Origin: Candidatus Cloacimonadales bacterium
GTDB lineage: Bacteria; Cloacimonadota; Cloacimonadia; Cloacimonadales; JAFGVF01
Assembly (NCBI GenBank): GCA_963678315.1
Contig: OY782781.1
Location: 1,440,001-1,504,000, forward strand
Direction: 5' to 3'
Length of the DNA stretch: 64,000 nt
Shown here: piece by piece, positions 15,190 to 61,180 of the stretch
Numbering within the stretch: the first letter of the stretch is position 1
Layout: each line of letters begins with the position of its first letter
Program-made: the position numbers and the translations under genes
Notes under the pieces: generated by a model
The model's input: only the letters and a program-made list of their open reading frames with translations
What the model was told of the DNA's origin: nothing
Database searches by the model: none

Positions 15190-15585
15190 TCACCTCTGTT
15201 CCATCTTCCACAGCTTATATTTTAAGTATGCAATAGGAAAGAAAGGAGTCATAGTTCTAATTCTGAAGGCATAATGCGAAGTGAATAAGTGATCAATATT
15301 CCATAAGTGCAGACTAACTATTTTCAAAACAATTGATAGTATAAGTACTATAACTACATCCCAAAAAATACGATAGTTTTTAAAGACAGGTAGCCAAATA
15401 GCTATTAAACTTGCAAATGAAACAAATAAAAAACCATTTGTATTAAACAAATCTTCATAATTATAATGAACATACATCAAGGCTATAGCTCTGATTAACA
15501 TTAGGATAATTAAGAATTTGTATAAGGAAAAATTAACAGTTAAATCTTCGTTATTAACTTTCTTACTATAAGGTCGATAATCCAT
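15190..15585 (-). CDS. Hypothetical membrane protein
   Basis: 131-aa ORF with 3-4 hydrophobic segments and GAGG RBS. Confidence 0.6.
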   Translation of the reverse strand: MDYRPYSKKVNNEDLTVNFSLYKFLIILMLIRAIALMYVHYNYEDLFNTNGFLFVSFASLIAIWLPVFKNYRIFWDVVIVLILSIVLKIVSLHLWNIDHLFTSHYAFRIRTMTPFFPIAYLKYKLWKMEQR

Positions 15586-15670
15586 AAAATGCCTCTTTCA
15601 AAATTTTATATAATTTACAGAATGTATGAATTTATGTCAAGAAATTGCTTATAAGGAAATGTAGATAGAG

Positions 15671-15702
15671 AAAAAAAAGTGCAGACCTTGATCTGCACTT
15701 TT
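15671..15702 (-). terminator. Intrinsic terminator after ettA
   Basis: aaaagtgcaga-ccttga-tctgcactttt with an A8 run (U tail on minus strand). Confidence 0.85.
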
Positions 15703-15728
15703 CAATTTTATGTAATATTACAAAGTGA

Positions 15729-17408
15729 TTAAACTCTAGTAAGTTTTCTATAAGTAATACGTTTAGGTACTAAAGCTTTTTCACCTAAGCGTTCTAATTT
15801 ATCTTCTTCATATTCAGAGAAGTTACCATCAAACCATTTAACTTTAGAATCACCTTCAAAAGCAAGGATATGGGTACAGATTCTATCTAAGAAGTATCTA
15901 TCATGGCTAATAACAACAGCACAGCCAGCGAAGTTCATTAAAGCATCTTCTAAGGCACGGATAGTGTTGATGTCTAAGTCATTAGTAGGTTCATCTAGAA
16001 GAAGAACATTGCCACCAGTTTGAAGAGTAAGAGCTAAATATGCTCTATTTTTTTCACCACCTGAAAGAACATTCATTGGTTTTTCTTGTTCTTTAGAATT
16101 AAAGTTAAATCTTGAAAGGTATTGTCTAACATTAATTTCTTTGTTGCCAACTTGCATAACATCTCTACCATCACCGATAAGTTCAAGTATAGTTTTATCT
16201 GAATCAACAATACGAGCTTGGTCGACGTAAGATAATTTAACAGTATCACCTAAAGTAAAAGTACCAGTGTCAGCTTGGATTTTTTCTGTAATCATATTGA
16301 AAAGAGTAGTTTTACCTGCACCATTGGCTCCGATTACACCAATAATACCACCAGCTGGAAGGTCGAAAGATAAATCTTCATAAAGAAGTTTTTCATCAAA
16401 AGCTTTTGATACACCTTCAGCCTTAATTACATTAGTACCTAATTTTGGACCTGTAGGGATGTAAAGAGAGTCTGTAGAATTCTCTTTCTGGAAGTCAGCT
16501 GAAGCCATCTTCTCATAATTAGCGATTCTTGCTTTACTCTTAGCATGTTTAGCTTTAGCAGTAGATTTAATCCATTCTAATTCACGTTGAAGAGCTTTCT
16601 GACGTTTAGATTCACCTTTAGCCTCAGTAGCTAAACGCTTTTGTTTTTGGTCTAACCATGAAGAATAGTTACCTTCCCAAGGAATACCTTCACCTCTATC
16701 AAGTTCAAGAATCCAACCTGCAACATTATCAAGGAAGTATCTATCATGAGTGATAGCAATAACTGTTCCTTTGTAGTTGTGAAGATGATGTTCTAACCAA
16801 AGAATTGTCTCAGCATCAAGATGGTTAGTAGGCTCATCAAGAAGTAAGATGTCTGGTTCTTGAAGAAGTAGACGACATAAAGCAACACGACGTTTTTCAC
16901 CACCAGAGATGACAGCAGTTTTTAAGTCACCAGCTGGACAACGAAGAGCATCCATAGCTAGTTCCAATCTAGAATCAAGATCCCAGGCATTGCAAGCATC
17001 AAGTTTATCTTGAACATCACCTTGTTCTTTCATAAGTTTATCCATTTCATCATCAGACATTGGCTCACAAAAAGCTAAATTGATTTCTTCAAACCTTTCT
17101 AAAAGAGCTACTGCTTCAGAAGCACCTTCTTTAACTATATCAAGAACTGTTTTTTCAGGGTCTAACTGAGGGTCTTGTTCAAGATAACCTATTGTGTAGC
17201 CTTTTGACATTGCAACTTCACCAAGAAAATCTTGGTCAATTCCAGCCATGATTTTTAATAGAGTTGATTTACCTGAACCATTTAAACCTACGATACCAAT
17301 CTTAGCCCCGTAATAAAAACCTAAGTAGATATCTTTTAATATTTGCTTATTTCCATCAATGACTTTACCAACCTTACTCATTGAATAAATAACTTTATTT
17401 TCTTCCAT
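15729..17408 (-). CDS. ettA: Energy-dependent translational throttle protein (ABC-F ATPase)
   Basis: Two ABC domains; YGAKIGIVGLNGSGKS, LELAMDALRCP, GEGIPWEGNYSSWL, THILAFEGDS, ends RITYRKLTR. Confidence 0.95.
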   Translation of the reverse strand: MEENKVIYSMSKVGKVIDGNKQILKDIYLGFYYGAKIGIVGLNGSGKSTLLKIMAGIDQDFLGEVAMSKGYTIGYLEQDPQLDPEKTVLDIVKEGASEAVALLERFEEINLAFCEPMSDDEMDKLMKEQGDVQDKLDACNAWDLDSRLELAMDALRCPAGDLKTAVISGGEKRRVALCRLLLQEPDILLLDEPTNHLDAETILWLEHHLHNYKGTVIAITHDRYFLDNVAGWILELDRGEGIPWEGNYSSWLDQKQKRLATEAKGESKRQKALQRELEWIKSTAKAKHAKSKARIANYEKMASADFQKENSTDSLYIPTGPKLGTNVIKAEGVSKAFDEKLLYEDLSFDLPAGGIIGVIGANGAGKTTLFNMITEKIQADTGTFTLGDTVKLSYVDQARIVDSDKTILELIGDGRDVMQVGNKEINVRQYLSRFNFNSKEQEKPMNVLSGGEKNRAYLALTLQTGGNVLLLDEPTNDLDINTIRALEDALMNFAGCAVVISHDRYFLDRICTHILAFEGDSKVKWFDGNFSEYEEDKLERLGEKALVPKRITYRKLTRV

Positions 17409-17480
17409 TTTACTTCCTTTTATTTATGTATAGAGTCAGAAAAATTTAGGAAGATAAGATGTCAAAATATATATATAAAA

Positions 17481-17755
17481 AAAGAGACGTTTCACGAACG
17501 TCTCACATCTTTTTAAAGTTAAGGAAATTTGTTTTTGCTTTATTTTTACAAAAATAAATCGACAATAGCTTAGTTAAAACTTTAGTCGAAGATTGTACTG
17601 TGACAGGCGAAGACTGTTTATAATACTTCGAGTGCTAAAGATTTAGCTAAGATATGTCGAATCTCAAAATGCAAGACATTTTTGTTTATCAACAGGTAAT
17701 TTTCAACATTAAACCTATTGTCAAAAGTAAAGAGACGTTTCACGAACGTCTCACA
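17481..17755 (+). repeat. ~210-bp structured non-coding element (copy A) between two identical 27-bp hairpins
   Basis: aaagagacgtttcacgaacgtctcaca at 17481-17507 and 17729-17755; interior 17516-17728 aligns with the reverse complement of 60921-61136. Confidence 0.85.
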
Positions 17756-17782
17756 ATAAACATAGATTTCTTATTAGGTATA

Positions 17783-19483
17783 TTATACGTATAAATAACG
17801 TTTAATTTTCATAGTTGGGGTCTTCTCAAAAGGCTCCATTTGCTCAACAACTTTAGATAGTCTTGAGAAAGATGACACCCTAGAGTTAACCTCTAGCTTA
17901 ATTTTATTTAAAATGTTATCAACTTCTTCTTTAAGCTTTGATTCTGAATAATTGTGTGATTTGAAGAGGTCATCAATTAGTTCGTAGTTAAGATGTATCT
18001 TGGCTGTAAGTTTATGGTTATTTTCATAGACAATAGATTCATTTACTAGTTCAGATTCATTGATCACAGCTTCAATTTCTTCAGGATAAATGTTTTCACC
18101 ACTAGGACCAAGAATAACATTTTTAAGTCTACCTTTGATGTAAAGATAACCATTTTTCATTAGACCCAAATCTCCTGTTCTAAAGTACTTTTTACCATTA
18201 ATGGTGATAAAAGCTTCTTCTGTTTGCTTGGGAGCTTTATAGTACTTTTTCATAACAGTTTTACCTCTAACAACAATCTCACCTTCATTGGTTTTAGGAT
18301 TCTTGTTGATGATTAGATGTTTTAGCTTGTAGACAATAGGTCCAGTAGAACGATATCTCATTTTAGAAGGATGAGAGCCAGCTAAAAGAGGGGATGTTTC
18401 TGTAAGTCCATAACCAATTGAATATGGGAAAGAAGAATCAAAAAGGAACCTCTCAACATCTGGAGCTAAAGGCGCACCACCAACACCAAAGAATTTAAGA
18501 CAACCACCAAATGATGTCATTAGTTTTTTACCAGCTATCTTGTGGAAGATAACCCTGAAGAAAGGAATCTTATACAAGAAATGTACAAATTTATTGCTGG
18601 TAAAAGTAGGTAATACTTTGTTCCTGAATATCTTTTCTATGATTAGAGGAACAGTCAGCATGATAGTAGGTCTTACTTTAGCTAAAGCTGGGAGTAAGAC
18701 TCTTGGAGTTGGAGCTTTTTTGATGTAGTGTAAAGCACAATTAAACATTAATGGATATAAAAAGCCAAGAGTTGCTTCATAAGTATGGGGGAGAGGTAAT
18801 ATTGAAATTAATCTATCATTCTCATCCATAGGTTGAACTGAATAACAAGCTTCAACATTTTGAACTAAGTTCTCATTTGTAAGCATAACCCCTTTTGACT
18901 TGCCGGTAGTTCCTGACGTATAAATTATAACAACAACGTCTTTTCCTGATATCTTGCTAGACCTGAATAGATTGGTTGGAGAGAAACGACTGGTCCTTTT
19001 AGTAACTAATCTTTTCTGTTCTTGGTAGATAGATTTTAATTTAGCAAAAGTGGACTCAGGTTCTAGTCTCTCAAATGACTCAATGTCAAAGGCTAAATCA
19101 ATTCCATTACCTAGCATAGCTTCAAACTTAGGATAAAGTCTTTCAGAAACGAATATTGCTTTAGATTCAGAGTGGCGTAAAATATGATGAATCTCATTTT
19201 CATGGAATTCAGTAAGGATTGGTACAACAATTGCACCTAATGAGATAATTGCAAGATAGCTGATACACCAGTTAGGTGAGTTTTGACTTAGGATAGCTAC
19301 TTTATCACCATGCTTAATACCATGCATGTCTAATAGCTTGGCTATTCTTTCAATCTCTAGGCCTAACTTCTCATAAGTAATACCTTCTTCATCAACCCAA
19401 GTCAGAGCAATCTGTGCAGGTCGCTTCTTTATTGCATCATGTATGTTCTCAATTAGAGTCTCTTTTAATTTAATCTTTTTCAT
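17783..19483 (-). CDS. Long-chain fatty acid-CoA ligase (AMP-binding)
   Basis: IIYTSGTTGKSKG, GYGLTETSP, FRTGDLG, GRLKNVI, ENIYPEEIE. Confidence 0.92.
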   Translation of the reverse strand: MKKIKLKETLIENIHDAIKKRPAQIALTWVDEEGITYEKLGLEIERIAKLLDMHGIKHGDKVAILSQNSPNWCISYLAIISLGAIVVPILTEFHENEIHHILRHSESKAIFVSERLYPKFEAMLGNGIDLAFDIESFERLEPESTFAKLKSIYQEQKRLVTKRTSRFSPTNLFRSSKISGKDVVVIIYTSGTTGKSKGVMLTNENLVQNVEACYSVQPMDENDRLISILPLPHTYEATLGFLYPLMFNCALHYIKKAPTPRVLLPALAKVRPTIMLTVPLIIEKIFRNKVLPTFTSNKFVHFLYKIPFFRVIFHKIAGKKLMTSFGGCLKFFGVGGAPLAPDVERFLFDSSFPYSIGYGLTETSPLLAGSHPSKMRYRSTGPIVYKLKHLIINKNPKTNEGEIVVRGKTVMKKYYKAPKQTEEAFITINGKKYFRTGDLGLMKNGYLYIKGRLKNVILGPSGENIYPEEIEAVINESELVNESIVYENNHKLTAKIHLNYELIDDLFKSHNYSESKLKEEVDNILNKIKLEVNSRVSSFSRLSKVVEQMEPFEKTPTMKIKRYLYV

Positions 19484-19973
19484 ATATAATACCTTTCATA
19501 CTAAACAGAATAAGTATGGATTTTTGTCAACATTTTGAAATTTTGAGACAAGTTACTTACACTAACTATAAGGATAATTTCATCAAAAAAATAAAAAAAA
19601 CAAATTTTTGCTAAATGATAAAAGCAATAAATGAAACTATTGGAGAATTTCAATAAGCTTTTTTCTAAAGTATCCTATATCTTGATTAAAGAAATGAGTG
19701 TCAATAGAATATTACTTATTAAAGCTATTTGTAAATTTTTGCAAGAAATATAAGATGTTAAATATTAAAAGATTATAAGAATTAATGTCCAATAAATGTT
19801 TTCTATTAAAATAAAATCGAGTCCGGGATATGAATAATTAAGTATAGCTGTGACTGTAAATGTTGTAATGTTAAATATACGTAACTTTTATATTAGCAAT
19901 AAATGTTTGACAAGTTTAGAAAAAAAGTCTTATTTAGCAAAATAAACTATTAAATATGATTAGGAGGTCGTAT

Positions 19974-47492: not shown

Positions 47493-47616
47493 CCCACGAT
47501 TGAAATCATGGGCTCTTAGAAGATATGTCCTTTCAGGACAAAGCAAGAGAGACGTTTTGCGAAACGTCTCTGTAAGAATATTCAGTGTTGTAGGGGCAGA
47601 TGACATAGCCCCTACA
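47493..47616. repeat. Cluster of REP-like hairpins downstream of the FGE gene
   Basis: cccacgat-tgaa-atcatggg; tgtcctttcaggaca; agagacgtttt-gc-gaaacgtctct; tgtaggggc-n10-gcccctaca (47589-47616). Confidence 0.75.
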
Positions 47617-60893: not shown

Positions 60894-61180
60894 ATAGAGT
60901 GTTGAATTTCAGCACTCTATAGTCTTTTGATAAATGGCTTATTGTTGAAGATTCCTTGCTGGTAAAGATGATTATTTTGTATTTTGAGATTTGACATATC
61001 TTAGTTAAATCCTTGACTCTTGAAGTATTATAATCAGTCTTTGCCTGACACAGTACTTTTCTGCGGTCAACGATTCAACTAAGCTATTGCCGATTTGTTT
61101 TTGTAAAAACAAAGCAAAAACAAAGAGCCTTGACTTGTCAAGACTCTCTCAAGAGTGTTGATTTCCAGCACTCTATCTTT
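60894..61180 (-). repeat. ~210-bp structured non-coding element (copy B) between two near-identical hairpins
   Basis: agagtgttga-n4-cagcactctat at 60896-60920 and 61152-61176; interior 60921-61136 is the reverse-complement homolog of 17516-17728. Confidence 0.85.

Follow-up and report, generated by a model that had tools for sequence, protein, structure and literature searches.

Two stretches of non-coding DNA in the genome of a Candidatus Cloacimonadales bacterium, each lying between two copies of a small hairpin, raise the question of what kind of element they represent, why host hairpins flank it on both sides and what its folded interior might do. Both lie within a window of 64,000 nt, the whole stretch of DNA analysed here, which corresponds to positions 1,440,001-1,504,000 in a genome assembled as one contig of 2.99 Mb (32.8% G+C, 97.9% complete). 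A sequence-only reading of this window had proposed a non-autonomous mobile element or non-coding RNA (ncRNA) that targets terminator hairpins or repetitive extragenic palindromic (REP) hairpins and duplicates them on insertion, and the proposal of a mobile element is supported by the copies, duplications, empty site and partner insertion sequence (IS) described below. We conclude that the element is very probably a small non-coding MITE (miniature inverted-repeat transposable element) of the IS1182 family, which lands on hairpins behind genes and duplicates the whole hairpin. The kind is already known; this member, which has no name, is new. The two copies in the window, called A and B here, and their target site duplications (TSDs) are arranged as follows:

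17481-17507, no strand: first TSD copy of copy A, 27 bp, made up of the host hairpin GAGACGTTTCACGAACGTCTC and 3 nt on each side; identical to 17729-17755.
17508-17728, + strand: MITE copy A, 221 nt, scoring 135.2 bits with the covariance model R1 introduced below; skipped by contigs of the public sequencing runs X3, X5 and X7.
17729-17755, no strand: second TSD copy of copy A, for which the right end of the MITE supplies the tail TTTACTTTTG on the - strand.
60896-60920, no strand: TSD of copy B on the 3' side of the element, hairpin ATAGAGTGCTGAAATTCAACACTCT(AT), with 2 differences in 25 nt relative to 61152-61176.
60921-61151, - strand: MITE copy B, 231 nt, scoring 134.5 bits with model R1.
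61152-61176, no strand: TSD of copy B on the 5' side of the element, ATAGAGTGCTGGAAATCAACACTCT.

A dispersed element between duplicated host hairpins

Copies A and B align with 79.3% identity over 213 nt (blastn, E 3.5e-47), in good agreement with the roughly 75-80% estimated by hand in the earlier reading. That reading had placed them at 17516-17728 (+) and 60921-61136 (-), for which the locations are right but the borders are not, since the element is longer (17508-17728 and 60921-61151). As had also been noted, no open reading frame (ORF) is common to the two copies, copy A being overlapped only by unshared chance ORFs of 41-46 amino acids (aa). A small peptide starting from the ATG in GATATGTCG was considered and rejected: in the alignment this ATG is part of a stem, all relatives and two copies of this genome have other letters in its place, and the frame is interrupted by indels. 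Collecting the family across the genome by blastn and motif searches, as the sequence-only reading had suggested, yields 13 near-full copies of 205-231 nt, without a transposase gene inside, together with several fragments, of which the 5' ones, at 856k and 2934k of the genome, continue into other repeats. The 13 copies are all separated from a neighbouring ORF by 5-153 nt, each has the 3' end of a gene within about 50 nt, and six are flanked by convergent gene pairs. Among relatives that carry this core, the closest are found in records with the title Candidatus Cloacimonadales or Cloacimonadota.

The host-hairpin flanks have a different sequence at every copy. Two stretches of 27 bp with the identical sequence AAAGAGACGTTTCACGAACGTCTCACA, at 17481-17507 and 17729-17755, enclose copy A, and copy B is enclosed by near-identical 25-bp hairpins on the - strand (61176-61152 and 60920-60896) with two differences between them; both brackets, and the fact that copy B sits on a different hairpin from copy A, had been read correctly from the letters. 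We scanned 12 copies of this genome for flanking duplications and read the thirteenth, at 2797k, by eye. A clear duplication of the whole hairpin, 19-28 bp in length, is present at five of the 12, and a partial or diverged one at a further three. One copy sits within a direct duplication that is longer, measuring at least 53 bp. At this copy, at 365k (locus L073, G000:C1:365500-365860), the duplication spans the 5' end of the downstream ORF as well as a hairpin (AAATGCTT..AAGCATTT), and it may represent an unusually long target duplication.

Direct evidence for insertion comes from an empty site at copy A, which was sought by comparing contigs of public sequencing runs over positions 15500-19500 of the window. 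Contigs from three runs and two studies, X3 (2303 nt), X5 (8628 nt) and X7 (1713 nt), all from near-identical strains, join position 17479/17480 to 17729 and skip 248-249 nt, which equals the 221-nt element plus one 27-bp TSD; in run X7, the 27 letters fit on either side of the joint. The site with a single hairpin that the sequence-only reading had recommended looking for in related genomes is therefore present in these strains. With a single hairpin in the empty allele and two in the filled one, copy A must be regarded as a recent, strain-polymorphic insertion.

A resident IS1182-family element with the same habit

The search for a longer copy enclosing a transposase, also proposed in the earlier reading, found no such copy genome-wide, and model R1 has no match inside IS copies, but the genome does contain a separate IS1182-family element of 1671 bp with related ends. 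It was recognised in an all-against-all ORF comparison as a 486-aa ORF in seven identical or near-identical copies, none of them in the window. The protein matches NF033551 'IS1182 family transposase' with 452.6 bits (E 1.8e-135, cut-off 270) as well as the Pfam families DDE_Tnp_1_6 and DUF772, and the IS has a perfect 17-bp inverted repeat, CAGACTGCTGACAAAGT. All seven copies abut a hairpin, with a complete duplicated hairpin of 17-22 bp at six of them and a partial one at the seventh. Of the 12 genomes of the family, this one included, seven have relatives of the transposase, with 31 matches in one genome, and at related IS loci in three other genomes a whole hairpin of 15-31 bp is duplicated at 6/6 loci read.

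The ends of the MITE resemble those of the IS. In this genome, the right end of the MITE, CAGACTTTTGACAAAAG, matches the IS repeat CAGACTGCTGACAAAGT at 13 of 17 positions, and its left end, GAGAGTCTTGACAAAGTCA, matches IS CAGACTGCTGACAAAGTCA at 15 of 19. Within two sister genera, the MITE right end tracks the IS end of its own genus (GGGGTTTGTCTACAGCCTG vs GGGGTTTGTCTACTACCTG in one, GGTTTGTCAACAATCTG vs TTTTTGTCAACAATCTG in the other). The two elements also share a landing site, namely a family of REP-like hairpins with the pattern GAGACG-N(6-12)-CGTCTC, of which the genome has 58 copies compared to about 0.14 expected from composition. Its members in the window are at 17484-17504, 17732-17752 and 47549-47570, and the target of copy A belongs to it, which bears out the connection with REP hairpins made from the sequence alone. 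These hairpins are the preferred landing site of the IS1182-family element (5/7 copies by reading) and of copy A. Given that the MITE has ends like those of a resident DDE element, makes palindrome-sized duplications and leaves a clean empty site, and that the IS has the same habit, the MITE is probably mobilised in trans by an IS1182-family transposase. Antisense complementarity between MITE and IS was not found beyond chance AT-rich words.

A conserved internal fold

From 5' to 3', a typical copy in the alignment of copies with their flanks has a hairpin H0 (GAGAGTCTTGAYAAAGTCAAGRCTCT) followed by TTTGTTTTTGC, a hairpin H1, a long composite hairpin and a variable tail of about 60-70 nt terminating in ..TTTTGTCAAAAGTCTG. 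In copy A, the internal parts are:

17539-17559, + strand: hairpin H1, TTTATTTTT-ACA-AAAAATAAA, with covariation in 36 distinct sequences.
17559-17660, + strand: long composite hairpin, with the base TCGACA/TGTCGA, then a 17-bp stem, then an apical stem.
17590-17611 (borders ambiguous owing to repeated AAGA), + strand: nested piece of about 22 nt in the apical loop, part of the mini-palindrome ACTGTGACAGGCGAAGACTGTT.

The left end of copy A is degenerate, with TCTTTTTAAAGTTAAGG where the family has the GAGAGTCTTGAYAAAGTCAAGG hairpin, and its right end is ..TTGTCAAAAGT. Copy B starts with an intact, terminator-like H0 (61149-61122) and GTTTTTGCTT; H1 comes next, then the long hairpin, in which the 22-nt piece is nested, and lastly the right end ..ATCAAAAGACT. 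The approximately 22 extra nucleotides in the apical loop are present in 3/13 copies (A, B and a third at 840k of the genome) and absent from the other ten.

Copies A and B give fold z-scores of -3.99 and -4.41, and for neither copy was any of 200 dinucleotide shuffles as stable. Weak blastn matches in sister genomes proved to be homologous cores with stems that differ by paired changes. We therefore built a covariance model, R1, from 19 sequences (148 positions, 28 pairs) and ran it over 121 genomes of the order. It matches all 11 other genomes of the family, three of the eight of a second family and none of the 101 in the remaining eleven families, with 1-12 matches in each matching genome and roughly 90 overall. 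Scans with the core pattern point the same way: of 43 loci in metagenomes, three match the model and are contigs already known in a relative, and of 33 loci in a genome collection, the nine labelled Cloacimonadales or Cloacimonadota match the model and none of the 24 others does.

Covariation was measured on 38 R1 matches, corresponding to 36 distinct sequences. Standard pairs are formed by 97.3% of 1006 cells, compared to 82.7% in column shuffles; 17 of the 28 pairs have changed on both sides, with up to five pair types per column. None of 500 shuffles reaches any of these measures, and sliding the partners by 1-3 columns lowers pairing to 38-51%. Fitting the alignment to the model works in favour of the structure, and since many of the sequences are kin, the shuffle count should not be read as a probability; more weight attaches to the slid controls and to the diversity of pair types. 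The covariance model advocated in the sequence-only reading thus shows strong covariation. H1 is a 9-bp A/T hairpin of which eight pairs were scored, four changed on both sides, with 99.3% of cells paired. The long hairpin, comprising helices 2 and 3, has 20 pairs, of which 13 changed on both sides, with 97.1% and 91.5% of cells paired and with conserved internal loops AAUAG and AAGAU; the unpaired stretches GTTTTTG, ATCG, AATAG and AAGAT are conserved as well. G-U cells outnumber A-C cells by 47 to 5, which identifies the forward strand as the folding strand.

Most of the structural details of the sequence-only reading hold up against these data. Its strand assignment from G-U bias (+ at 17.6 kb, - at 61 kb) was right, and the stems tttAttttt/aaaaaTaaa, ttAGt/gCTaa and cttagtt../ttta.ctaag are real, as judged by covariation in the 36 distinct sequences. 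The Acag/ctgT stem drawn around a gc(g/a)aaga loop, on the other hand, lies in the nested 22-nt mini-palindrome of 3/13 copies and does not belong to the element proper, and the closing stem tttgtttttg/caaaat.caa is not conserved, with pairing in 50 of 60 cells here compared to only 56 of 120 in relatives. The multi-branch fold derived from that closing stem is therefore rejected in favour of two hairpins and one long composite hairpin. H0 is stable (-8 kcal/mol or better) in about 20 of the 36 sequences, its arms differ and covary between lineages, and it nearly always precedes (G)TTTTTG. An Rfam scan of the 64-kb window at gathering thresholds gave no matches, and scanning both copies permissively returned only noise below the threshold (best E 0.043, 19.7 bits vs a gathering score of 50), in keeping with the earlier reader having recognised no named family. 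Across ten copies of this genome, the core is more conserved than the 3' tail (mean identity 0.80 vs 0.59).

The internal fold is unusually well conserved for a MITE, and has been kept by compensatory change across two bacterial families. Our best guess from these comparisons is that the interior may act as a single-stranded forward-strand fold, either RNA or single-stranded DNA, that is needed for the element to persist or to be mobilised. More specifically, we tentatively suggest that a module of about 110 nt, consisting of H1 and the long hairpin with its GA-rich loops, could be under selection as a single strand across at least two Cloacimonadales families while the element moves from terminator to terminator, be it as a mobile ncRNA or as a structure required by the transposase.

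In relatives, the apical loop of the long hairpin carries nested 60-70-nt insertions of other small elements (L025:349-567, L099:1501-1711, L013:349-508). One such nested-insert copy, which does not have H0, appears at a shared flank in L017, L025 and L099, the flank having been read directly for L017 and L025. The apex of the long hairpin seems to be a hot spot for hairpin-seeking insertions.

Terminator-like junctions and a proposed mechanism

Simple scans reveal terminator-like sites at the junctions of the element. These are formed by the duplicated host hairpin and the T-rich tail at the right end of the MITE (TTTACTTTTG and AGTCTTTTGA), and on the left by H0 and GTTTTTGCTT. At the first TSD copy of copy A (17481-17507), the original T-run follows the hairpin on the - strand, and the site is terminator-like on both strands; the TSD at 60896-60920 is terminator-like on the + strand, with the tail AGTCTTTTGA coming from the MITE end. 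With H0 and a T-run on the left, and a T-run beside the duplicated hairpin on the right, insertion seems to rebuild terminator-like signals on both sides in this genome, as far as such signals can be read from sequence. This could enable the element to occupy terminators at little cost. The T-rich right end was not seen in the MITEs of sister genera. The related IS of a sister genus (L047, L054, L061; genome G004, with 31 matches) has a 13-bp hairpin that overlaps the inner left inverted repeat and is followed by T7, and in G004 a TTGACA/TATACT promoter-like pair lies after T7 and before the transposase gene. The left-end hairpin and T7 look like a built-in terminator against read-through, of the same design as H0 of the MITE.

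How could such an element duplicate a complete hairpin? We propose that the DDE transposase of the full-length IS would bind the MITE ends in trans and would pick a palindrome, in the form of an extruded hairpin or cruciform, by its shape and not by its sequence. The two 3' ends of the element would then each be joined to one strand, at opposite feet of the palindrome or close to them, which would make the stagger equal to the length of the palindrome (15-31 bp), and gap repair would copy the whole hairpin onto both sides. As the targets are mostly rho-independent terminators or REP-like hairpins behind genes, such insertions would be nearly harmless.

Alternative explanations

A number of observations weigh against an IS1182-family MITE that duplicates its hairpin target. 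The flanking duplication, whose generality the sequence-only reading had left to be established, is absent at three of the 12 scanned copies of this genome, next to the five clear and three partial or diverged cases mentioned above; one of the 12 and the thirteenth copy (2797k) keep the left arm only, and in relatives a clear duplication is found in just 6 of 26 rows. Such absent or partial duplications suggest great age or rearrangement for many copies. In principle, the empty site could have arisen by precise excision and not be the state before insertion. In addition, the terminal inverted repeats of the MITE are imperfect relative to each other, and the left end is most degenerate in copy A, the sole copy for which polymorphism was shown and one that also does not have the right terminal CTG. 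The basis for mobilisation in trans is end similarity only. Nothing in the IS convincingly corresponds to the MITE interior, and homology with the IS leader was considered and rejected, since the best collinear alignment of the left part of the MITE with the leader scores a marginal 30 vs 22.3 +/- 3.9 in shuffles, with 25 of 500 shuffles as good. Finally, sequence scans of both window copies found no sigma-70-like promoter upstream of the fold, and in tandem gene contexts the element is antisense more often than sense (5 vs 2 here; 12 vs 7 rows in relatives, where the counts come from crude stop-to-stop ORFs of at least 90 aa and include some gaps over 500 nt), which leaves an RNA of the forward strand with no obvious source. 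In run X1, which we guess to be RNA, a lone 50-nt piece maps to 17257-17306, outside the element.

Could a different enzyme account for the mobility? The genome is full of small nested palindromic repeats and has nine Y1_Tnp matches above the cut-off, as might be expected if the element were a REPIN- or PATE-like repeat moved by a Y1 HUH transposase of the IS200/IS605 or RAYT type instead of an IS1182 enzyme. However, Y1 transposases are not known to duplicate their target, and they work on subterminal hairpins instead of inverted repeats. The 19-28-bp duplications, the IS1182-like inverted ends and an empty site differing by precisely the element and one duplication make such an origin very unlikely. 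It is also true that the duplication of a palindrome of about 25-30 bp resembles the repeat duplication of CRISPR arrays, but an integrase of the Cas1 or casposase type is extremely improbable here, and so are copies that are merely non-mobile segmental duplications: there is no Cas1 match in this 97.9% complete genome, no two copies have the same flanks, the empty site is exact and a DDE IS with the same habit is present.

For the interior of the IS1182-family MITE, two explanations deserve more attention, the first of which adds to the MITE reading. The fold might be a functional ncRNA cargo selected by the host, either a mobile small RNA (sRNA) or a cis-acting RNA gene. The strong covariation with several pair types per column, the excess of G-U over A-C cells expected for one-strand folding, the conserved unpaired stretches, the higher conservation of the core relative to the 3' tail and the presence of the core in 11/11 other genomes of the family and 3/8 of the second all fit a functional RNA, and the apical loop accepts nested insertions in the way that variable RNA loops do. 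Yet besides the missing promoter, a terminator-like hairpin and U-run precede the fold on the same strand, orientation has no sense bias relative to the neighbours, Rfam has no match, and no gene family consistently adjoins the element where this was checked, for the window copies, so that we consider an RNA cargo possible and not more than that. Selection for mobility might instead maintain the fold at the DNA level, single-stranded or extruded, where it would be bound by the transposase or a host factor during transposition. The IS1182-family enzymes in this genome plainly read the shape of target DNA, the left inverted repeat of the MITE is embedded in H0, which covaries between lineages, and the sister-genus IS has its 13-bp hairpin and T7 over the inner left repeat; moreover, compensatory changes among the copies of one genome would be expected if only folded copies give offspring. 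We nevertheless regard a DNA-level role as somewhat doubtful. The full-length IS transposes without the fold, R1 having one match in the genome with 31 IS copies, and tolerance of G-T on one strand is unexpected for a cruciform, in which both strands fold. The three copies with a 22-nt apical insertion have still spread, implying that at least the apex is dispensable.

Other repeats and mobile elements of the genome

The 22-nt mini-palindrome ACTGTGACAGGCGAAGACTGTT has 40 matches in the genome with up to three mismatches, including the three MITE copies. In the window it lies at 17597-17618 (+) and about 61054-61033 (-), and elsewhere for example at 329388, 492976, 629544, 814464 and 1766196. 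It is mostly nested in a hairpin module gcaagcaggg..gcttgc and often found beside modules such as ggagtgtaagcatccaccg, and the intergenic space as a whole forms a mosaic in which small repeats sit within one another's loops. The nine Y1 domain matches all lie outside the window, at 599462-599800, 796211-796453, 1104316-1126242 (six within 22 kb) and 1688425-1688667; these Y1 transposases are candidates for spreading the REP-like hairpins and mini-palindromes. Also outside the window, and named by sequence reading, are an IS21-like pair of ORFs (about 498 aa and 242 aa) in seven copies, two IS4-like DDE transposase-like ORFs in three and two copies, and reverse transcriptase (RT)-like ORFs resembling the RTs of group II introns in 2+2 copies. 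Likewise outside the window, at 1812704-1822491, six ORFs of about 538 aa stand in tandem.

Comparison with known systems

Within the full-text literature searched, outside which lie most subscription journals and ISfinder, we found neither this element, nor a hairpin-duplicating MITE of the IS1182 type, nor a covarying fold within one. For DDE elements of this family, these papers likewise describe neither a mobile ncRNA spread by the transposase nor a fold that the transposase requires on its substrate. The Correia, ERIC, RUP and BOX elements are likewise short, dispersed, intergenic and foldable, and they sometimes alter termination or mRNA stability. They fold mainly via their terminal repeats and make 2-bp or otherwise short duplications, whereas the conserved fold described here lies in the interior and is specific to one strand, and the structure of the target determines the duplication. 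REPINs, which RAYT transposases move, are hairpin-based extragenic repeats that are not known to make a target duplication. Although the present element is also hairpin-based and extragenic, and Y1 genes are found in its genome too, it differs from REPINs by its duplications and IS1182-like ends. In Cloacimonadales genomes from anaerobic digesters, copies of the present family might otherwise be mistaken for sRNA genes or terminators, and model R1 provides a means to flag them.

The closest relatives in kind belong to the IS1182 family itself. For the small non-coding intergenic MITEPye1 of Paracoccus yeei, the sections of the paper drawn on here describe IS1182-like ends, a predicted long stem-loop and 4-bp direct repeats (PMC11578231). 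MITEPye1 thus shares the type of ends with the present element, but its 4-bp repeats contrast with the whole-hairpin duplication here, and in those same sections its fold is predicted from single sequences, with no cross-genus covariation reported (PMC11578231). ISCbo5/ISBma2 of Clostridium botulinum group III and C. novyi is, according to the portion of the report used, inserted at all sites but one in hairpins at gene ends, probably terminators, and is described with a 'surrounding hairpin' (PMC3098183). This is the habit of the seven-copy IS of the present genome, with the difference that ISCbo5/ISBma2 is autonomous and occurs in Firmicutes; that portion of the report describes neither a non-autonomous derivative nor a conserved internal fold (PMC3098183). 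From extracts of two further sources, terminator-like sequences are reported inside and upstream of IS elements generally (preprint 10.1101/2025.07.22.666184), and an IS5/IS1182 event (bioRxiv 2024.06.02.596822) is unrelated to the one considered here.

The staphylococcal IS1182-family elements IS1272 and TnSha1/TnSha2 provide the most instructive comparison. Judging from the parts of these papers drawn on here, they insert in either orientation into inverted repeats or stem-loops that vary in sequence and size, many of them terminators (PMC5678879, PMC4923244), a preference for palindromes that both papers attribute for the family to a 2015 review by Siguier. In the same passages, IS1272 and TnSha1 delete or replace the stem-loop and make no target duplication (PMC5678879, PMC4923244), and duplication of the entire stem-loop is drawn as an alternative 'pathway b' in Fig. 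13 (PMC5678879). The present element and its partner IS combine a DDE transposase of the same family with hairpin targets, but here the stem-loop is duplicated, and the MITE has no transposase of its own. Two features are notable beside these systems, namely direct evidence for a whole-hairpin target duplication that is measured by structure, and a covarying internal fold maintained across two families. The duplications offer a clean natural case within the IS1182 family of a stagger set by the shape of the target (15-31 bp) and not by a fixed spacing, and compensatory conservation on one strand, which is unusual for a MITE, makes the interior a candidate mobile RNA or structural requirement of transposition. 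Since the staphylococcal work drew the duplication pathway but observed deletion, the Cloacimonadales elements could be tractable for studying how a DDE transposase measures a hairpin.

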